Made by a program: the position numbers and the translations under genes. Positions 16,040-50,989 of a DNA stretch of 64,000 nt are shown here, piece after piece (the stretch's first letter is position 1; the number at the start of each line of letters is the position of its first letter). Under the pieces are notes generated by a model that did no database searches, was not told the origin of the DNA, and saw nothing but the letters and a program-made list of their open reading frames with translations. The DNA is taken from NCBI GenBank assembly GCA_030867685.1, contig JAQOWU010000001.1, positions 434,001 through 498,000 of the forward strand, given 5' to 3'. The DNA comes from Wickerhamiella versatilis (lineage: Eukaryota).

Positions 16040-16780
16040 TGGCAGAGCTTACGTATGTGGATCCTGGTGGGAGCGGGCCAACTAACCCACCGCTGACTCA
16101 TAGAGATCTCAATTAATCAATAATGAGCCTAGCCCTAGTCCCCATATCATTGCAAACCAAATTGGCCTCACTTTTTCAATATCCTCCTAATGTTCTTCTG
16201 TTAGTGGGTCCCTCATATTAATTTGTAGACTTCTCAGCAAAACAAGAATTATGCTATATTCATGCCTAATAGACATAGACATAATTTATCGAATTACTGA
16301 CAAAACTCGTCGCAATGAAGCAGTGTGCTATGTAATAATAGACTTATTGATATAGATTACAGTATCATAGTCCTTGAAGAGAGTCACTAGTGCTGTCTCA
16401 AATCGCTGTGAGTTTGATCTTTAACCCTACAACGATGGTGATTGATGCTATGGTAATTAAAGGACAGACAGTTATCAACCGCAACTCATATGTAAATTCT
16501 ATAACTGAAATATACTTTCCAGGCTATTGCAGGGCTTTTCAAGTATGGGTATATTAGAGTGCTATAACTATATTAAACCTTCAGAGCAATTGACCAGATG
16601 CCTCACAAGCTGTAGTAAAATGATTGAGGCTAGTATATGCCAGCAATTTATGAATACCCCACTATCCTCTATCTTAGAGTCTTATCTGCCGATTCGTATG
16701 CACTAAGCAAGGTTACAAATCAATATATCTCGACCTCGAGACGTCAGAAAAAGGCGGAGAAGAGTGCTAGCTCCATACAA

Positions 16781-18475
16781 ATGCATAGCCTAAAGCGTGC
16801 ACGCACTAGATCTGGCTGTTACACGTGTAGGAGAAGAAAAAAGCGCTGCGATGAATCGCATCCTATATGTGGTGCTTGTGAAAGACTTGGTATGGAATGT
16901 AACTTTCCCTCCCCCGGGAGGGAAAATATTAATTCACGTCACAGTGTGAGAAAAAGCACATCTGATCGTCCAAAAACAGAACACGCTAATATGAAGTTTC
17001 TGCCAAACACTTCATTGCAGCAGGCACCAGGTACCTTCACCCCGCCCGAGCTAAACAACAAAGCACTTCCTGGATTTGTACTGGGGCTTACTTGCGAGCT
17101 AAAAAACTCTATCATAAATCCATATGCCATGTCACAAGAGGCGTCGCCCTCGTCCGATCCTTTAGATCCTTTTGATTTGTTAGAAATCAATGCACAGGAC
17201 GAGAACACACATCAAACAGCATCTACACAGCAAGCCCGTGATGAGGAGATAGAGCATAATAGTTCAGGATTTCCGTCAAACGCACCGCTCGATAGAAAAC
17301 AATCCGATGACCTGACTGACTCCATTAGTTATGCACCGTCCACGAAAGAACTTACAGAAAGGTACCCGGACTTGTCTGAGAAAGGTGTTTTACTTTTTGA
17401 GTACTTTAGAGACAAGCAATCTTTGCTGATGTCTGTTTCACCCCTTAACTATTTTAGATCAGTTTATCTTGTCTTTGCACTGCGCTGTAAAGCGGTACTG
17501 TATGCTCTCTTGGCGTGGGCAGGCTTCCATGCAGGGCTTAATGATCAAGGAAATGAGTTTTTTGAAAAAGCCACTAGCCTAGTTCTCAATAAAGAGTCTA
17601 GCAAGCTTGCAAAAGAGGAGCTTTTGGCATCGATTCTGATATTGGCTGCGGCGAAGATTTTTTCCGGAGATATCAAGTACTGGCATGACTATATGAGATG
17701 GGCAGCCGCTGTCATCCAGTCGCATGGTGGGATTTTCTCTTTCATGGAGAGCGACAGTGTCAAATGGCTGTTAAAAAACTTTGCATACAAAGAAATATTG
17801 AGATCTTCCTCGTCTCAGCTTCCAGCATTATTTACACCAGCTGAGTTTGAGTTTATTTTTGCTCAATCTATGTCGACTAAGCTTCCGGATTCACTTTTCG
17901 CTTGCTGTGAGCCTCTTTTTGTTGTGATTTCGATCATTAATGATATGGCATTAAGAGTGGGGAATGTTGCATTGGATGATAGGGGTGCACTAGAATCCAT
18001 CTTCAAGCAAACTCAAGCGATTGAACAACGAATCAAGCTAGCTAAACCGGACGAAAGACTTCTACAGGCGCTTACTGCTGAGGAGAAGAACTTGCAATTA
18101 CATGTATTTCATGTATTTAAAATAGTGGCTTTGCTTCATATTTATCAGGCCGTTCTTCACAGTAATAGTGCTACTCTCAGAATGAGGTACATGAATTTAC
18201 GCCTAATTGAAGCTTTGCATGATTTATTGGGTACGAGTCTTGAAGGCCTTCTTGCTTTTCCTCTATTCATTGCTGGAATATGCTGTTCAGAGGAATCCCA
18301 GAGATCTAAAGTCATTGAAATGTTTAACTCGGTGCAAATTCGCCGGAATTTCACCCATCTAGAACAGGTGCAAATGGTGGTGAAGGAGGTTTGGAGATTA
18401 GACGAACATGGGAATAAATACGTGGATTGGAATGAGCTAATTGAAAGTCAAGGCTTAAATCTAAGCTTCTGCTAG
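16781..18475 (+). CDS. Zn(II)2Cys6 transcription factor with fungal-specific TF domain (Uga3/Lys14-like architecture)
   Basis: RTRSGCYTCRRRKKRCDESHPICGACERLGMEC; C-terminal FPLFIAG...EVW...VDW. The ORF track starts at 16637; 16781 is the more likely ATG. Confidence 0.88.
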   Translation: MHSLKRARTRSGCYTCRRRKKRCDESHPICGACERLGMECNFPSPGRENINSRHSVRKSTSDRPKTEHANMKFLPNTSLQQAPGTFTPPELNNKALPGFVLGLTCELKNSIINPYAMSQEASPSSDPLDPFDLLEINAQDENTHQTASTQQARDEEIEHNSSGFPSNAPLDRKQSDDLTDSISYAPSTKELTERYPDLSEKGVLLFEYFRDKQSLLMSVSPLNYFRSVYLVFALRCKAVLYALLAWAGFHAGLNDQGNEFFEKATSLVLNKESSKLAKEELLASILILAAAKIFSGDIKYWHDYMRWAAAVIQSHGGIFSFMESDSVKWLLKNFAYKEILRSSSSQLPALFTPAEFEFIFAQSMSTKLPDSLFACCEPLFVVISIINDMALRVGNVALDDRGALESIFKQTQAIEQRIKLAKPDERLLQALTAEEKNLQLHVFHVFKIVALLHIYQAVLHSNSATLRMRYMNLRLIEALHDLLGTSLEGLLAFPLFIAGICCSEESQRSKVIEMFNSVQIRRNFTHLEQVQMVVKEVWRLDEHGNKYVDWNELIESQGLNLSFC

Positions 18476-18572
18476 GTGCGTGATAGCTATTTGCGTTGCA
18501 GGCGCACGAGTGGAGTCCTTTAGCACGTGATCTGATAGTGTAATCAATGGACTCTATGTGAACTCGCGTATA

Positions 18573-19223
18573 ATGGATAACTCCAGCAGAGCAGGATCTA
18601 AAAAAGGATCAGGAGGAATCGCTACCCAGGGAGCAGAAGAGCTACAGCGCAAGAAGAGGATTAACCAGCTATTTCAGGAGACAGTTGACCTCAGCAAGGA
18701 CCCATATATTTACCGTCACTCCACAGGCAAATATGAGTGCCGACTGTGCTTGACGATGCATAGGGACGAGAGTTCGTACCTTGCACACACAGGAGCTCGA
18801 AAACATAGAGAGAATTTAGAACGACGCAGAGTTCTTGACGAGGCAGATCGCCAACGTGACATTACACCACAAGGAGGGGCTTCTTCGATTCCTAAAAAAG
18901 ACCGTGTGGCCTCATTAAAAGTGGAAAAGTTTAATGTTTCGAAAATTAAGGACCCAATCACGGGTGCAATAGGCTGTCTGGTTCAATTAACTTTGCCTGA
19001 GGCATCAAAACCACTTCATCGCTTCATGTCCGCCTATGAGCAGCATGTTGAGAAAAGAAACGGTAGATTCCAGTATCTGGTGATAGCTGCAGAACCTTAT
19101 GAAAATGTCGCTATCAAGATTCCATCACCACAGATTGACCGGGACAGTCTACTCGAGAATTGGGATTCTGACAACGGAATTTATACAATGCAATTCCTTT
19201 GGCCTCCAGTAACGGAGTTTTAG
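18573..19223 (+). CDS. PRP11: U2 snRNP SF3a subunit 2 (Sap62)
   Basis: RAGSKKGSGG, DLSKDPY, YECRLCLTMH..HTGARKH, HRFMSAYEQ, AAEPYENVAIKIP. Confidence 0.93.
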   Translation: MDNSSRAGSKKGSGGIATQGAEELQRKKRINQLFQETVDLSKDPYIYRHSTGKYECRLCLTMHRDESSYLAHTGARKHRENLERRRVLDEADRQRDITPQGGASSIPKKDRVASLKVEKFNVSKIKDPITGAIGCLVQLTLPEASKPLHRFMSAYEQHVEKRNGRFQYLVIAAEPYENVAIKIPSPQIDRDSLLENWDSDNGIYTMQFLWPPVTEF

Positions 19224-19390
19224 CACATTACACCCACACTAATTCTATTTAACCAAGATGCGATTATATCAAGATCAAGATCAATGTAGTAATTACTAAT
19301 ATGGACTTAGGGCTTATTATGTAACACACTCATCCCAAACCGAGTGTCCGAAATTGTCTGGCAGTTCACTGTAATAGCCCAGGAAAAAAA

Positions 19391-19937
19391 AGTAAGTGCC
19401 CAATTGGAGCTGGTCTCTCAGGAGTACTGAGACACACCGGACTCTCTGCTATGGATTCAGAATCCTGTCAGATTGGCCGGACACTCTGGACCCCTGAAGG
19501 GCCGGTTTCACCATTATAGATGGTGTGAACCTATACTAACCATAGTGACCCGTACATCTGTCCTAGCTGACGCCTTGAAGACTATTCATAACGCTGAGAA
19601 GGCCGGTAAGCGCCAGGTTCTTGTCCGTCCTGCCTCTAAGGTTATCATCCGCTTTTTGCAGGTGATCCAGAAGCACGGCTACATCAACGACTTCGAGTTC
19701 GTTGATGACCACCGCTCCGGAAAGATCGTTGTGTTCTTGAACGGCCGTCTTAACAAGGTTGGCGTTATCAGCCCTCGCTTCAACTTGAAGATTAACGATA
19801 TCGAGGAGTGGGTTACCAGCCTTCTTCCTTCTCGCCAGTTCGGTTACATCATTCTCACCACTTCCGCTGGCATTATGGACCACGAGGAGGCTCGCCGGAA
19901 GCACGTCGCTGGTAAGATCCTCGGGTTTGTGTACTAA
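19391..19937 (+). CDS. RPS22: 40S ribosomal protein uS8 (S22/S15a); join(19391,19546..19937)
   Basis: [10 protein letters not shown]...GKRQVLVRP...DDHRSGKI...MDHEEARRK. The ATG is formed only after splicing (A^TG). Confidence 0.93.
19392..19545 (+). other. Spliceosomal intron (154 nt) inside the RPS22 start codon
   Basis: 5' splice site GTAAGT at 19392, branch point TACTAAC at 19534-19540, 3' splice site TAG ending 19545; splicing yields ATG ACC CGT in frame. Confidence 0.9.
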
Positions 19938-20048
19938 GTAGAATTGTTAATAAAACGCATGAATTACTAGACTGGAAGCGAAGTAGCACTCGCCGTATAG
20001 ATTCGTCGGGAGTCTGACCAATAAATTTGGATCGGGACAGGATGAAGA

Positions 20049-20570
20049 ATGATAGGTTGGGTAGACGTTCACTATCATGATGACGGCACAGCCCGGGCAG
20101 CATGTGGCGTTGCATACAACTGGTCTGACGCCGAATTCGAGGCTGAATATGTAGTGGTTATTGATGCAGTAGAGCCCTATCAGCCAGGCCAGTTTTATCG
20201 CAGGGAGATGCCCTGTATTCTGGCCGTCTTAGAAAAAGTACAGGAGGCTATTCATATTCTCGTTATAGATGGCTTTGTTGTTCTTGGATCCACATACAGG
20301 CCGGGCTTGGGATGGCATTTAGCCCAAGCCACTCACAACATTGCTGTTATAGGTTTGGCGAAATCACCTTTCGCAGACACCCCTGAAGAATTACAGGTGT
20401 TCAGGGGAGGGAGTTCTAAGCCATTGTTTGTTAGTACTCATGGGATTTCTTTGGATATCGCCAAAAACGCCGTCGAATCGATGGCGGGCAGATTCCGGCT
20501 TCCCTCACTTGTTAAACGGGTGGATCAATTGTCGAAGGGAATTGTGCTCCCGAAGATGAGCCACCAATAA
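20049..20570 (+). CDS. nfi: Endonuclease V (deoxyinosine 3'-endonuclease), short bacterial type
   Basis: VDVHY, PYQPGQFYRREMP, IDG, GLG.HL, IGLAKS, RGGSSKPLFVS, RLP..VKRVD. Confidence 0.88.
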   Translation: MIGWVDVHYHDDGTARAACGVAYNWSDAEFEAEYVVVIDAVEPYQPGQFYRREMPCILAVLEKVQEAIHILVIDGFVVLGSTYRPGLGWHLAQATHNIAVIGLAKSPFADTPEELQVFRGGSSKPLFVSTHGISLDIAKNAVESMAGRFRLPSLVKRVDQLSKGIVLPKMSHQ

Positions 20571-20667
20571 AATTAGAATTCCTCGAAATAAGCCTTTCAT
20601 TTACTGACTTTATGAAGATATATTACAAGGGTTTATCGTTCGCGTCCTTATAATGCCTATTTTAAGA

Positions 20668-21180
20668 CTATATCACATTATTATACTTTTTAAATTTCGC
20701 GTATGCATCACTGTAATTTTCTTTCTGTGCACCTATGCCACCACAACGACGTACAAGTTCGCCCGTTGTAGTGTCACGAGTAATGTCTTCGACCCCAAGT
20801 TCAATCTGAAGCCACTGCCAAATCTCCCTGCTATTAGAATGTGATACCTCATCCCGTGCAGTGTACGCATCTACTCTAGGATCAGTAGCTGTTTTTGCAA
20901 ACTCGATATGATCTCGTGCATGCTGGCTAAGTGCTGCTATATCAGTGGTTGGTCTTTCGTCTGAAGAAGCCTTCAAACCAGCTACTGTGGCACAATAGCC
21001 TAATAGTGAATCACGGCGGCTCCACTCACTATAGAGCTCCCTGATAAACTTGTCACAAGTAACTTGACCCAAACGATTCCGAACATTATCATCATAACTA
21101 TGCCGGCTTACGCTTAAAAAACGTCTGATGGCGCTAGCGTCTGCGCACAGATCTGGGGTTTTCAGCGATTCGGGGTCCAT
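20668..21180 (-). CDS. MIX23: Mitochondrial intermembrane-space protein Mix23 (Cid2 family)
   Basis: LC....IRRFLSVSR..DD.V..RL, W..RD..L.YC, DPRVDAY, E.GVE.I...T......RC. Confidence 0.82.
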   Translation of the reverse strand: MDPESLKTPDLCADASAIRRFLSVSRHSYDDNVRNRLGQVTCDKFIRELYSEWSRRDSLLGYCATVAGLKASSDERPTTDIAALSQHARDHIEFAKTATDPRVDAYTARDEVSHSNSREIWQWLQIELGVEDITRDTTTGELVRRCGGIGAQKENYSDAYAKFKKYNNVI

Positions 21181-21355
21181 TTGTCAGACATTGTGATTCA
21201 CTTGGTTTTTGTAAAAATTAGCTATGGATTTAGCTATTCATGTCATCAGCAGTCGCTAACTCTAGATTACTATTGTTCATTTTTTTAGCGGCTCTAGAAA
21301 CATATCGAACTTCATTATTCGAACTTTTGCTGACCTAATAAAGACTTCATCCAGC

Positions 21356-22342
21356 ATGTCATTATCGCCACAGCAGCGGCTTGTATCCGACTTTGTAGGT
21401 TTTCTGCAAAAGAACTTGGAAGCTGGAGAGATTGCTGGAGATGAGCGGGAGTCCATAGAAGTAGCAATGGATTGTCTACGTGAAAGTTTCCGTGTGGCAG
21501 ATGTTCCATCGGAACGGGACCTTTTAAAGATTTATGAAGAGGCTCCTCCAGCAGAGACAGATGCTAAGTCGGATTCATCTGAGCCAACCACTGAAGTATC
21601 CGAGAAAGCAAAGGCCGAAGGTGATAAGCTCAAAGTCGAGGGTAATAAACTGATGGCACAGAAGAAGTACAGTGATGCTGTCAAATCATACACAGAGGCT
21701 ATTGAGAAGAATCCCTACAATGCACTTTACTATTCCAACCGAGCAGCAGCTCGTAGCCAGCTCGGTCAAGGAGATGAAGCCGTCGAGGATGCAAGGCAAG
21801 CGACCATTCTCGACCCGAGTTATAGCAAGGGCTGGTCACGACTAGGACTTGCGTTGTGGTCGACAGGAGACTTGCAGGGCAGTCTGGATGCGTATGCTCG
21901 TGGACTAGAAGCTGAAGGTCCGAATCCTAGCGAAGCTATGAAGCGTGATTTTGCAATGGTTAAACGGCGATACATGGAGGAGATAAAGAAGCGTGAAGAT
22001 GACGAATTATCAGACAGCGTACAAAATACCGAGGCCACTACTGAGGCGACTGGTACTAAGAGCCCCTGGGATGCTGGTTCAGAGCCAGAACCTAATGCAG
22101 CTGGAGGCGGCGGCGGGTTTCCAGGCTTAGGTGGTCTTGCCGACATGATGAAGAACCCTCAGCTGATGAAGATGGCCCAAAGTTTCATGTCGAATCCAGA
22201 GTCTATCAATCGACTGATGTCTTCTCCAGGTGCCCAGAAAGCCCGCGAGTCAATGGAGAAAGGCCAGATGCCTAGCATGGCAGATATAATGCAGGATCCT
22301 AACCTGATGGGTATGCTGCGAGGTTTCATGGGTGGACAATAG
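21356..22342 (+). CDS. SGT2: SGTA/Sgt2 TPR co-chaperone
   Basis: Dimerisation domain ESIEVAMDCL, three TPRs (LKVEGNKLM..YYSNRAAA..YSKGWSRLG), M/Q-rich STI1-like tail. Confidence 0.93.
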   Translation: MSLSPQQRLVSDFVGFLQKNLEAGEIAGDERESIEVAMDCLRESFRVADVPSERDLLKIYEEAPPAETDAKSDSSEPTTEVSEKAKAEGDKLKVEGNKLMAQKKYSDAVKSYTEAIEKNPYNALYYSNRAAARSQLGQGDEAVEDARQATILDPSYSKGWSRLGLALWSTGDLQGSLDAYARGLEAEGPNPSEAMKRDFAMVKRRYMEEIKKREDDELSDSVQNTEATTEATGTKSPWDAGSEPEPNAAGGGGGFPGLGGLADMMKNPQLMKMAQSFMSNPESINRLMSSPGAQKARESMEKGQMPSMADIMQDPNLMGMLRGFMGGQ

Positions 22343-22672
22343 AAAGATTTCCTAGGCATTGAGTAAGTATAATTAAGTACAATTCGGCAGCTAGCTAAGT
22401 AACTAATTAACCAACTAACCAACTTACCAACATCTCGTTGGGGTGTCGTATTGGTAAAACAACTGATATGATGAGACAAAGAGCAAAAAAGAGATCTATC
22501 AGCTGAAAGAAGTGCACCCGTCTTCTTTAATATAGACGTATAGGTAACTTTGGATAGGTCGTATTCTTTTTTCACACCTATGGAATTTTCTACGTTCCAA
22601 TCTTATAATAATATAGAGAATATAAGGAAACTTCAGAGCAACGCGAAAACTTTTAAGATCTTTGTTTTTAAA

Positions 22673-23995
<1,323 letters not shown>

Positions 23996-39350: not shown

Positions 39351-40430
39351 TTACGAGGAAGACTCTGCTTTAATCTCTTCTGCTTGACGTTGTTTCGTTG
39401 TGCTCTTCTTATTTCCTTTTGGCTTTTTGCGAGTGGATTCTACAGACTTGGGCTTCATCTCACTATCACTTGATTTGCGCTTGTTAATCTTTTTCTTGCC
39501 CGGATCTGTACTTTTATCAGGTTCAGTCTCCTCCAATTTAGGCAATATCTGCAATTCCGGAGCAAAACAGCTTGTTCTACCGCCAACAGTAACAAATTCC
39601 AGATTATAGCCTTCCGGAGTTTGTGCTAACTCGTTCTTGCGCCCTTTTCCCCAGCGGTGTAGCATTAACCAACCAGACGGGAACTCTTTCACATTTGCTT
39701 CGGTATCTAGGGCTATACGGCAAACCTCTCTGATATTATTGTATAGTATTTTAGCCTGATCTGGGGTTAGCGTTGGGCAATATTGAGCAGGATGAATACG
39801 AGACTGGAACAAAATTTCATCCGCCATCCAGTTACCAATTCCACTGAAAACCGATTGATCCAAAAGAAGGGCCTTTACTGCTACACGGCGCTTGCTCAAA
39901 ACAGATAGAAACTGCTCTAGTGGTGGGATAGGTCCTTGTGACCAGTCAATTCCTAGATTTTTCAAGGGTTCGAATTCGGTAATTCTCTCTGCTGGGGCTT
40001 CAATAAGCCGGATGCGGCTCAATCTCCGGGCATCTTTGAATGCTATTTCAGAATCCTCCGTTTTAAAAATGAATTTGGTGAACTTTGGAGGCCATAAGGG
40101 TTCTTCCTTTATGCCTGCTTTCAACTTCTTATCACCACCTCCTTCCATTGGAATGAAATGCGTTGACACGCCCTTTATATGCATCCAACCCGTCATGCCA
40201 AAGTGAAGAAGAATTGTTCTACTACGATTAACCTCGAACCAAAAGTATTTTCCATGTCTTCCTATCTCAGTTACCTTTGTGCCTTTCAGTGCTTGCTCCA
40301 GTCTCGTCGCGTCTAGGGGCTTGACAAGTATAATTTCGTCGGGATTGGCAGTGATGCTAGTGATTACTTTGCCAAGGAGGTATTTTCTAAGCAAAGCAAC
40401 TGCATGGCCGACTTCGCCAAGTTCTGGCAT
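39351..40430 (-). CDS. FPG1: Formamidopyrimidine-DNA glycosylase (fungal/plant Fpg type)
   Basis: N-terminal MPELGEV, RHGKYFW, HFGMTG, H2TH LLDQSVFSGIGNWMADE, VGGRTS with no zinc finger, Lys-rich tail. Confidence 0.9.
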   Translation of the reverse strand: MPELGEVGHAVALLRKYLLGKVITSITANPDEIILVKPLDATRLEQALKGTKVTEIGRHGKYFWFEVNRSRTILLHFGMTGWMHIKGVSTHFIPMEGGGDKKLKAGIKEEPLWPPKFTKFIFKTEDSEIAFKDARRLSRIRLIEAPAERITEFEPLKNLGIDWSQGPIPPLEQFLSVLSKRRVAVKALLLDQSVFSGIGNWMADEILFQSRIHPAQYCPTLTPDQAKILYNNIREVCRIALDTEANVKEFPSGWLMLHRWGKGRKNELAQTPEGYNLEFVTVGGRTSCFAPELQILPKLEETEPDKSTDPGKKKINKRKSSDSEMKPKSVESTRKKPKGNKKSTTKQRQAEEIKAESSS

Positions 40431-40601: not shown

Positions 40602-41918
40602 TTACTTCTTATGCGGAACAAGTGGTTTTTCCGTGACAGTAAGCAGCCTGCTACCCCAATCACCAGCGGCAGCATCACCAGTTTCATCACGCACTTGTCT
40701 TAGGAATGGAAGTAAAGTAGTTCCTCCAGTTCCCACCTCCCCAGATGATCGGGCAAGTCCTACACTACCATCAGACTTGGAACTTTCTCTTGCGGGAATG
40801 GTAATATATCTTGTGACTATCTGAATATGACGAGTGCGGAAACCTCGAAGGCATGCAAGGCATGCGTCGTAAGCAGTCATCAATCTAGAACTTCCCGAGG
40901 ATAGAACATAATCACGGATGTTAGCAACCCTTTCGAGAGATTGTAGAAACTCGCGATGCTCTCTCGGCATATACTGACGCATTTCAATTAGAAAGTTGTT
41001 TGCAGCAGTGCTAGGTGGGGACTCATGGCCTTCCCTTTTGGAGAATAAGCTCGGCGGGGTCCTCTCTCCCAGCGGCCGATGATGAACACTTAAAAATATA
41101 TCCAAAACTTGAATCAAGGAAGATTGCGCATTTGAGCCTCCACAATACTTTCGAGGGGACGTCTCAGATCCATATATCACACCAGCACTTGGCAGCCCAG
41201 AAGCCTCCATGTTCTGCCATCCGGCAAGAAAAGGCCTTAATCTGTTGTAGAATGCATGAGGATCACATAACTCTGTCATCCTAGAGAGGAGAGCTGACAT
41301 AGAATCGATATCTTCTGCCAACAATTGCAAGAACTCCTCGAGCTTTTCGTCATTCCCTTCTCGTATGGCTTTCAATGCATCCAGTCCATGTGCAATACAA
41401 GGCCCACCCTTTTTCTCGAGCTCTACACTGATGAGATAGAACCAAGATTCATCAATTGACCCAGTGTAGGTGTGTTGGGTTGCTAAGTGTTCTAAATCCC
41501 ATTCTCTTGGAGATTCAGCGGACAGGGTTCTCCAATTCCAAAGACAGACACTCGCATAAGTACATACTGGAGGCAATCCCAATTTTGAGCTCGTCTCGAT
41601 CCACGGATCACAAATGTTTGATGGTAAATTCGAGACCGGAGTGGGACGGCACCAAACATATGCGTGTGCTAAGAAGCCTAGAATTGAGTATGCCCGCCGT
41701 ATTTCAGCCTTCCCAGATAGGCGTGATGCATCTAAATTAGGAAGCGCAGTTATACGCTTGCGGATTTGTTTTGTGAGTATTAATGCCGGCAGGTCATCGG
41801 CTACCTCCTCCCATGGTTCATAATAAGCCGGAAGACGCTTTGGCGGAGGTTCCTCCGGTAAAAATCCTGTTTCAAGGCTAACGTCATAGTTTGTGGGGTC
41901 AGGAATAGGCCACTTCAT
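40602..41918 (-). CDS. BNA2: Indoleamine 2,3-dioxygenase
   Basis: TGFLP, HAYVW, TGSIDESWFY, GGSNAQSSL, MRQYMP, GTGGT. Confidence 0.95.
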   Translation of the reverse strand: MKWPIPDPTNYDVSLETGFLPEEPPPKRLPAYYEPWEEVADDLPALILTKQIRKRITALPNLDASRLSGKAEIRRAYSILGFLAHAYVWCRPTPVSNLPSNICDPWIETSSKLGLPPVCTYASVCLWNWRTLSAESPREWDLEHLATQHTYTGSIDESWFYLISVELEKKGGPCIAHGLDALKAIREGNDEKLEEFLQLLAEDIDSMSALLSRMTELCDPHAFYNRLRPFLAGWQNMEASGLPSAGVIYGSETSPRKYCGGSNAQSSLIQVLDIFLSVHHRPLGERTPPSLFSKREGHESPPSTAANNFLIEMRQYMPREHREFLQSLERVANIRDYVLSSGSSRLMTAYDACLACLRGFRTRHIQIVTRYITIPARESSKSDGSVGLARSSGEVGTGGTTLLPFLRQVRDETGDAAAGDWGSRLLTVTEKPLVPHKK

Positions 41919-50341: not shown

Positions 50342-50989
50342 ATGCGTACCATCCTGGTGACAGGATTTGAGCCATTTGGGGGCCAGAATATCAATGCGTC
50401 ATGGCAGTCAGTACAAGGACTACCAGAAGAGATTGAGGGTGTGCGTATACTCAAATGCCAGCTTCCCTGTGTGTATTTTGAGAGTACGAGGGCTGTTGAG
50501 GCAAGCCTCAAGCCCGAAATAACTGACATTGTCCTTGTTGGTGAGGCAGGAGGGCGTTCTCGCATTACTCTGGAATTAGTTGGGGTTAACATTGATGATA
50601 CAAATGCACCAGATAACAAAGGTGTAATTAGGGAATTCCAACGGATCGTTCCTTCTGGACCAGACGGATACCTTGCGACGATTCCACTAAAACCTCTTCT
50701 GGAGTACCTCAAGGCAAAGAGTGTCCCTGCATCATTGTCCTGCAGTGCAGGTCTTTTTGTCTGTAATCATACTTTATATGGTGTTTCTCATCTGTTGTCC
50801 ACGCAAAAGAAACGGTCTCGAGTCGGGTTTGTCCATGTGCCTTATATCTCAGAGCAGGCCGCTATGTCTGGAACAAGTGGCCAAAGCTGTGCTGAGCTCA
50901 CTCGGGGTCTGAAGGAGATAGTTACTTTTTTGGCCAAAAACCCGCAGGCCGCCGATAGCAATGAATGGCCCGAGGAATTGATTCATTAA
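50342..50989 (+). CDS. pcp: Pyroglutamyl-peptidase I (peptidase C15), bacterial type
   Basis: ILVTGFEPFGG, GEAGGR, ITLE, PDNKG, SAGLFVCNH, GFVHVP; Glu-Cys-His triad intact. Confidence 0.92.
   Translation: MRTILVTGFEPFGGQNINASWQSVQGLPEEIEGVRILKCQLPCVYFESTRAVEASLKPEITDIVLVGEAGGRSRITLELVGVNIDDTNAPDNKGVIREFQRIVPSGPDGYLATIPLKPLLEYLKAKSVPASLSCSAGLFVCNHTLYGVSHLLSTQKKRSRVGFVHVPYISEQAAMSGTSGQSCAELTRGLKEIVTFLAKNPQAADSNEWPEELIH

Follow-up and report, generated by a model that had tools for sequence, protein, structure and literature searches.

The window, i.e. the whole 64-kb stretch of DNA analysed here, is compact, with about 40 open reading frames (ORFs) of at least 120 amino acids and spacers often near 100 nt, and the ORFs that were scanned represent eukaryotic genes of an ordinary kind; a search for tRNA genes gave none. 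Within it, an intronless ORF encoding an endonuclease V (EndoV) of a short form lies between RPS22 and a convergent MIX23 homologue, the position given in the earlier note and borne out by the profile matches of both neighbours. The features of the locus are as follows.

16637-18475: Zn2Cys6 factor, in the upstream neighbourhood
18573-19223: PRP11/SF3A2, upstream of RPS22
19385-19956, plus strand: RPS22 transcript, with reads beginning at 19385/19386
19392-19545, plus strand: RPS22 intron (GTAAGT ... TACTAAC ... AG)
19548-19934, plus strand: RPS22 frame (Ribosomal_S8, 78.4 bits), with its stop codon TAA at 19935-19937
19938-20048, plus strand: spacer of 111 nt from the RPS22 stop to the EndoV ATG
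20042-20080, plus strand: upstream ORF (uORF) opened by an out-of-frame ATG, 12 codons (MKNDRLGRRSLS and a stop), overlapping the main ATG
20049-20570, plus strand: EndoV ORF, intronless, 173 aa, short-form endonuclease V (Pfam PF04493)
20571-20667: spacer of 97 nt from the EndoV stop to the MIX23 stop, between convergent genes
20668-21180, minus strand: MIX23 homologue, 170 aa (81.5 bits), the downstream yeast flank
21356-22342: SGT2, downstream neighbour
22673-23992, minus strand: MET17, downstream neighbour

The RPS22 intron splits the start codon (A/TG), the A ending exon 1 at 19391 and the TG opening exon 2 at 19546. Splicing is seen in the RNA reads with the joint 19390>19546 and with the exon-1 tail GAAAAAAA ahead of 19546 in 232 and 209 RNA reads.

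The EndoV frame is unbroken from ATG to TAA (ORF list under genetic code table 1) and its product, referred to as the window protein, matches the Pfam family PF04493 (Endonuclease_5) with 57.8 bits (E 1.6e-15) compared to a cut-off of 23.4, which is far beyond chance. This confirms that the ORF is real and encodes a member of the endonuclease V family, and the intronless 173-aa ORF described in the earlier note holds. All six motifs listed there are present in the protein, i.e. V5-D6-V7-H8-Y9, P43-Y44-Q45-P46-G47, R51-R52-E53, I73-D74-G75, G102-L103-A104-K105-S106 and R157-V158-D159. The NCBIfam equivalog profile for nfi, NF008629, scores the window protein with 55.3 bits, below its cut-off of 230, the match being limited to profile positions 30-146 of 218, and for the profile PF01949 (Endo_dU) no match of the window protein was found at E<=1. 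For this analysis we defined a short-form EndoV subfamily, which is not a curated family, by a length of 160-185 aa and by a signature composed of an N-terminal M-I-x-x-x-D-V-x-Y, Y-x-P-G-Q-F-Y-x-R-E, D-G-x-V-x-L, P-G-L-G, G-V-A-K and R-V-D-x-L. The window protein carries this signature and is 37-51% identical to the aligned members other than P0002, a 176-aa protein described below. PF04493 is matched by all 100 short-form relatives, and six of these 100 also match PF01949 weakly (best E 8.1e-6).

The EndoV gene is truly part of the yeast chromosome. Contamination or misassembly, the objection raised in the earlier note itself, is rejected because run X14 (labelled 'DNA?') provides an independent contig, 121,657 nt long, that crosses both junctions and spans 18500-22500 without a gap, showing 13 differences. 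Both junctions are also bridged by a 3,775-nt record (run X15) spanning 18501-21355 with 39 differences, and yeast genes run unbroken on either side of the EndoV gene in the window. The runs X12-X15 (studies P2, P7, P8 and P9), none of them flagged as a possible source of the window, contain a fraction of 0.63-0.94 of the sampled words, RNA reads from a strain differing by 1-5% tile the stretch and leave none of its 30 bins without depth, and a protein identical to the window EndoV is found on nine contigs in the protein cluster database, the longest being 587,932 nt. The composition of the ORF (GC 0.487, GC3 0.477) falls within the range of its neighbours, and its codon fit is the ninth lowest of the 40 window ORFs. 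Nothing but the bacterial affinity of the protein speaks for a bacterial contaminant or a chimeric assembly, and we regard this explanation as practically excluded.

This bacterial affinity is pronounced. A search of 5.8 billion clusters returned 81 matches, i.e. the window protein, P0002 and 79 further proteins that are 41-51% identical and mostly 155-185 aa long, and the three cluster matches bearing organism names are all bacterial (Acidobacteriota, Flammeovirgaceae, Prosthecobacter). P0002, being 64% identical, is the only close relative among the 5.8 billion clusters. Scanned exhaustively with HMMER, 1.84 billion representatives gave 1537 matches at E<=1e-3, of which 883 also pass E<=1e-10; apart from the protein itself, the top match has 46-50% identity. 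In prokaryote contigs with one genome per species, at least 588 species encode a relative, among the 597 pattern matches listed. The best 80 of the prokaryote matches are all bacterial, with 38-51% identity, and span at least 11 phyla, namely Pseudomonadota, Planctomycetota, Deinococcota, Cyanobacteriota, Bacteroidota, Acidobacteriota, Myxococcota, Chloroflexota, Armatimonadota, Verrucomicrobiota and Thermodesulfobacteriota. The top tblastn matches are gammaproteobacteria (Aliikangiella, Pseudoalteromonas), and three Atlas clusters read 'Bacteria 100%', which serves as a lead only. With relatives in at least 588 bacterial species the short form is, as judged from these searches, a large subfamily widespread in bacteria. 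The short bacterial type recognised in the earlier note is upheld by these results, all named relatives being bacterial: short bacterial forms match at E-values of 1e-38 to 1e-43 and the enzyme of S. avermitilis at 4.6e-13, whereas mammalian ENDOV proteins match only at 3e-5 to 5e-4. Metagenome contigs scanned with three yeast-like sequences gave two loci and revealed no further yeast copy; the locus inspected, L082, lies on a bacterial contig of high GC and holds a truncated copy of 117 aa.

The genomes and neighbourhoods of the bacterial carriers were inspected as well. Of 15 bacterial genomes encoding the short form, 14 have it as their sole PF04493 match, which fits a protein standing in for Nfi; the remaining genome, G001, carries the short form together with a canonical EndoV copy (254 bits). 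Apart from close relatives in 5 neighbourhoods and an antisense-ORF artefact in 15, no recurrent neighbour family was found in the 3-kb flanks of 80 bacterial loci, and a PADLOC defence search of P0001, P0002 and P0225 returned 0 hits.

An alignment of the 100 short forms shows 14 invariant columns, i.e. D6, Y9, Y44, G47, R52, E53, D74, L87, G88, G102, A104, K105, P152 and D159. For the EndoV of T. maritima, the accessible part of PMC4650699 names D43, E89 and D110 as metal ligands, K139 and H214 as further active-site residues, P79-Y80-I81-P82 as the wedge and G83 as a pocket residue. HMMER alignments to solved EndoVs place D6, E53 and D74 of the window protein at the three metal ligands, K105 within G-L-A-K at K139 and D159 within R-V-D at H214, an Asp being found at this last position also in the RRAD of 3goc, the RWAD of 4xpu and the RQAD of 6oze. 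The wedge P43-Y44-Q45-P46 corresponds to P79-Y80-I81-P82 and the pocket residue G47 to G83; the wedge Ile is replaced by Gln in the window protein, most short forms having Glu there, and Y44 is invariant. The same part of PMC4650699 describes the rigid lesion pocket of E. coli EndoV as built from four glycines, G76, G104, G106 and G114. Three of these four are kept (G47, G75 and G86), and the position of E. coli G106 is occupied by V77, a nearly invariant Val across the short family.

The short form differs from the canonical enzymes in its anatomy. The window protein starts at about canonical residue 35-44, thereby lacking the first 35-43 canonical residues, and after the G-x-A-K strand it shows a gap of 12 residues compared to 3goc, 18 compared to the E. 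coli enzyme and 31 compared to mammalian chains; the HPR motif is missing. A profile built from the 100 short forms nevertheless finds the EndoV structures 3goc (2e-20), 4nsp (1.7e-13), 4xpu (2.7e-12) and 2w35 (1.1e-6). The AlphaFold model of the window protein (pLDDT 96.0, pTM 0.90) shows six strands, T. maritima EndoV being described with eight in the accessible part of PMC4650699. Foldseek ranks in the PDB down to 33 are all EndoV, with TMq values of 0.70-0.78 at 20-29% identity, followed by 2qh9 as the first non-EndoV (E 4e-6) and then by Argonaute PIWI domains. The model thus predicts that the window protein adopts the RNase H-like alpha/beta fold of EndoV.

The host can be placed with the help of a second gene. 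BNA2 has its best named match in Wickerhamiella sorbophila (56%), and in a 34-row tree the BNA2 proteins of the window, of an apparent sister species, of W. sorbophila and of two other rows group together (SH-aLRT 97), with a long stem leading to this group and sequences of the Dipodascales type surrounding it. As this is one gene with one named reference, we word the placement of the host as probably in or next to the Wickerhamiella/Starmerella clade. MET17 has its best named matches in CUG-clade yeasts (77%, Candidozyma auris) and is uninformative in this respect. The CUG-Ser code that these matches had suggested was rejected, five of the eight CTG codons of MET17 falling at mostly-Leu columns of its alignment, by which CTG is read as Leu in the host.

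P0002, a homologue of MET17 with 93% identity and a homologue of BNA2 with 78% identity share the length of their longest contig, 120,711 nt, and apparently belong to one syntenic contig from this sister species. If P0002 does belong to the sister species, the EndoV gene is older than the split between the two. P0002 retains all residues that are invariant in the short form. Between the window and the strain used for RNA sequencing, seven differences are listed within the ORF, six of them synonymous at third positions (20156, 20372, 20444, 20468, 20471 and 20516); the seventh, 20439 C>T, is the sole amino-acid change among those listed and results in H131Y, Tyr being the residue of the sister protein.

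The EndoV region is transcribed at a depth like that of its neighbours. The RNA runs X22 and X23 derive from one sample and were used as raw reads, their first mates being equal on both strands, i.e. unstranded. Summed depths were as follows.

EndoV ORF, 5' to 3': 118, 77 and 44 in X22; 153, 110 and 54 in X23
PRP11: 75-109 in X22; 79-125 in X23
MIX23: 56-60 in X22; 56-66 in X23
Spacer 21180-21313: 1 in X22; 3 in X23
RPS22: about 3,400 in X22; about 2,700 in X23

The depth drops steadily from RPS22 onwards (about 3,400, 200, 118, 77, 44 and 22), and as the library is unstranded, part or all of the signal over the ORF could be read-through from RPS22 or antisense 3' ends of MIX23. Read ends place the main 3' end of the RPS22 mRNA near 19956, inside the 111-nt spacer, and a promoter of the EndoV gene, if any, would have to sit within this spacer or inside RPS22. 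The out-of-frame ATG at 20042 pointed out in the earlier note exists and opens the uORF ending at 20080, which may, as supposed there, dampen translation.

These observations bear on whether the ORF might be intact but idle, i.e. a decaying or untranslated relic whose RNA is only read-through from RPS22. The monotonic fall of the depth in an unstranded library, the upstream spacer of only 111 nt and the overlapping uORF would be compatible with such a relic, and yet an open frame is kept by the window, by the X14 and X15 contigs despite their 13 and 39 differences, and by the sister species with its 176-aa protein, although at the 78% BNA2 identity of the sister one would expect an unconstrained frame of 173 codons to have broken. 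The 14 residues invariant in the family are all retained and six of the seven listed differences are synonymous. We therefore consider an idle ORF highly improbable; the EndoV ORF is probably translated.

Turning to the origin of the gene, the window protein and P0002 pair up in every tree with 99-100% support on a stem of 0.58-0.81, and the short family is split by a branch of 100% support from eight canonical gammaproteobacterial EndoVs. The rooted tree was built with these eight as outgroup and contained 60 bacterial short forms and the yeast pair. In the careful maximum-likelihood (ML) tree, the yeast pair falls within a clade of 58 rows (UFBoot 95, SH-aLRT 82), leaving four bacterial rows outside. 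The approximately unbiased (AU) test against the quick tree did not reject the 60 bacterial short forms as a clade without the yeast pair (p 0.82), the constrained tree beating the quick tree by 22.3 lnL, and the test against the careful tree did not reject the placement of the yeast pair outside the 60 bacterial short forms either (p 0.346, difference 8.4 lnL). Bacterial short forms are scrambled across phyla in the trees, with no donor phylum emerging; in a FastTree of 308 rows, P0225 (164 aa) joins the yeast pair with a local support of 92. Since the AU tests reject nothing and no donor emerges, the direction from bacteria to yeast is drawn from distribution and not from topology: hundreds of bacterial species stand against one yeast lineage, together with the published absence from other budding yeasts, which suggests that the gene moved from bacteria into the yeast.

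Horizontal transfer of the EndoV gene, as put forward in the earlier note, is supported by these data insofar as all named relatives are bacterial and both junctions are spanned, whereas the ML tree names no donor and the AU test leaves the yeast pair free to stand outside (p 0.346). Vertical descent would imply either an old eukaryotic or fungal gene surviving in one lineage or a transfer from yeast to bacteria, and both AU results as well as the long stem of the yeast pair and the fully host-like composition of the EndoV gene are in line with it. It would have to account, however, for relatives in at least 588 bacterial species, the best 80 of them from at least 11 phyla, compared to one close relative only among 5.8 billion clusters, which is apparently from a sister yeast, and for the nesting of the yeast pair in the careful ML tree (95/82). 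Moreover, the accessible part of PMC12629084 states that the rest of the Saccharomycotina are without EndoV, and the solved eukaryotic EndoVs are of the long form (chains of 245-253 residues) and match weakly. Taken together, we judge vertical descent to be very unlikely.

The data are best accounted for by a model according to which the ORF is probably a functional yeast gene of bacterial origin encoding a minimal-core EndoV that, by homology, would nick hypoxanthine-containing DNA. The ancestor of the host and of the sister species would have taken up the gene from a bacterium, the gene being inserted between RPS22 and MIX23, its composition drifting to that of the host and selection keeping it. 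By homology to the solved enzymes, D6, E53 and D74 would bind Mg2+/Mn2+, K105 and D159 would hold the scissile phosphate and the PYQP wedge with Y44 would be driven into the helix, resulting in a nick of the DNA 3' of the flipped deaminated purine, i.e. hypoxanthine. The outcome would be a repair function otherwise missing in budding yeasts. Residue conservation predicts inosine cleavage by the window protein, and neither conserved neighbours nor a defence signal speak for a different pathway.

The change from Gly to Val in the pocket and the missing HPR motif and modules would permit the range of substrates to differ. A protein of bacterial origin with another job, acting on inosine in RNA, on a dU or xanthine lesion or on branched or mismatched structures, would be consistent with the nearly invariant V77 of the short family in place of the pocket glycine G106 (accessible part of PMC4650699), with the absence of HPR, of the N-terminal 35-43 residues and of the internal 12-31 residues, with PF01949 (Endo_dU) being touched by 6 of 100 short forms and with 1 of 15 bacteria keeping both EndoV forms; canonical EndoVs are themselves reported to differ in whether they favour DNA or RNA. 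Against this, no variation is seen in any ligand of metal or phosphate, in the wedge Tyr or in three of the four pocket glycines, the short form is the sole family member in 14 of 15 bacterial genomes, as expected for the standard job, and there are neither conserved neighbour genes nor PADLOC hits. On balance another job appears rather unlikely, and DNA nicking at hypoxanthine remains the function that we favour.

A more far-reaching idea, for which we see a small chance, is that the short form constitutes a distinct 'mini-EndoV' lineage with a six-stranded core and a Val pocket but neither the N-terminal module nor the HPR motif, which would have replaced canonical EndoV in most bacterial carriers and would have been domesticated by a yeast lineage with few repair genes, with a substrate range other than hypoxanthine in DNA. 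If true, mini-EndoV would represent the smallest natural EndoV scaffold, adapted to a eukaryote, for which inosine in RNA or other deaminated or structured substrates would be possible. Irrespective of this, the short form bears on the question of whether inosine can be recognised without the N-terminal module and hairpin of canonical EndoV. Titles and abstracts, by which the literature was judged, revealed no work on a short or EndoV-like bacterial form, and the short form thus appears uncharacterised.

The transfer of a bacterial EndoV into this yeast lineage is already known. In its accessible part, PMC12629084 (Mol Biol Evol 2025) reports phylogenies that support a bacterial endonuclease V in species of Wickerhamiella/Starmerella, which may stem from two acquisitions (AU p 0.069), with top matches in the CFB group for Wickerhamiella and in gammaproteobacteria for Starmerella, and with EndoV missing from the rest of the Saccharomycotina; among full texts, only this article and its preprint mention endonuclease V, Wickerhamiella and Starmerella together. 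The present gene resembles the xenologues described there in having a host probably in or next to the Wickerhamiella/Starmerella clade and bacterial relatives, and its top tblastn matches are gammaproteobacterial, like those of the Starmerella copies. The accessible part of that article mentions neither a short architecture nor where the gene is inserted, and says nothing of its transcription or of a uORF.

Compared to canonical bacterial EndoVs (E. coli Nfi 4xpu, T. maritima 2w35 and S. avermitilis 3goc), the window protein shows the same RNase H-like fold (TMq 0.74-0.77), and its metal ligands, Lys and wedge Tyr align with theirs, as do three of the pocket's four glycines, but the identity is 20-29%, the canonical chains comprise 208-237 residues compared to 173 aa, the wedge reads PYIP in the canonical enzymes and PYQP in the window protein, E. 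coli G106 is replaced by Val77, and 12-18 residues are missing after the AK strand. The eukaryotic ENDOVs (human 4nsp/6oze, mouse 6oz*/5aoy, Ciona 6ozh/6ozi) belong to the same family and share the fold (TMq 0.74-0.78), and their chains run to 244-253 residues, the N-terminus being longer by about 40 residues and about 31 more being inserted behind the AK strand, in agreement with the statement of the earlier note that eukaryotic EndoV is longer; the window protein is not of this long form. DUF99/Endo_dU (PF01949; JBC 2024, PMC11585767) is also a small EndoV-like nuclease family, which the short form approaches in the weak PF01949 matches of six members and in the Foldseek match to 2qh9, and from which it is set apart by all 100 short forms matching PF04493 and by the window protein having no PF01949 match at E<=1. 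In a lineage that lost many repair genes, a bacterial EndoV may plausibly have restored repair capacity through horizontal transfer, and to this picture the locus analysed here adds where exactly the gene is inserted, namely between RPS22 and MIX23 at distances of only 111 and 97 nt, and further a transcribed region, retention in a sister species and the recognition that the acquired gene is of a short form common in bacteria.

In the FastTree analysis of 308 rows, the sister of the yeast pair, i.e. the endonuclease V (EndoV) of the window and P0002, is the short-form protein P0225 (local support 92). P0225 comprises 164 aa, is 42% identical and has in common with the yeast pair the N-terminal features M-I-G-F-x-D-V and W-S, and it could be either another copy from a yeast or the closest relative among bacteria. 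Among bacteria, the Aliikangiella marina genome contains two short-form EndoV matches on contig C5 (2619-3044 and 61716-62141), which have equal scores of 48 bits and lie about 59 kb apart on this single contig, suggesting a duplication. A truncated short-form EndoV of 117 aa was observed on a high-GC bacterial metagenome contig (L082, 3088-3441); this copy is devoid of the N-terminal half, in which the wedge and the first Asp of the catalytic site are located.

For the upstream neighbour RPS22, RNA reads define the following region:

19385-19547: RPS22 5' region with split start codon (RNA reads)

The start codon is divided by an intron, the A being located at 19391 and the TG at 19546-19547. 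Since the RNA reads begin at 19385/19386, RPS22 exon 1 is A-rich and only about 6-7 nt long. The main 3' end of the mRNA maps to 19956, about 19 nt past the stop codon.

Two flanking genes bear on the host lineage:

22673-23992, minus strand: MET17
40602-41918, minus strand: BNA2

The nearest named yeast differs between the two, being Candidozyma auris for MET17 (77%) and Wickerhamiella sorbophila for BNA2 (56%), each among the matches listed; Wickerhamiella is absent from the 120 MET17 matches listed. This disagreement could reflect differences in rate or a separate history of MET17.

Two further genes of the window stand out:

50342-50989, plus strand: pyroglutamyl peptidase, 215 aa (Peptidase_C15, 173 bits)
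39351-40430, minus strand: Fpg/Nei-type DNA glycosylase, 359 aa (structure matches)

The pyroglutamyl peptidase matches its best solved relatives over nearly the full length with E-values of 2e-44 to 4e-41, and it may represent a further gene of bacterial type; the host lineage is known for such transfers. The glycosylase matches 3twl/3twk ('Formamidopyrimidine-DNA glycosylase 1') with an E-value of 4.7e-49, compared to 1e-13 at best for bacterial MutM/Fpg chains. Judged by these matches, it appears to be an Fpg of the eukaryote type and not a recent import from bacteria; 3twl is the Arabidopsis enzyme.
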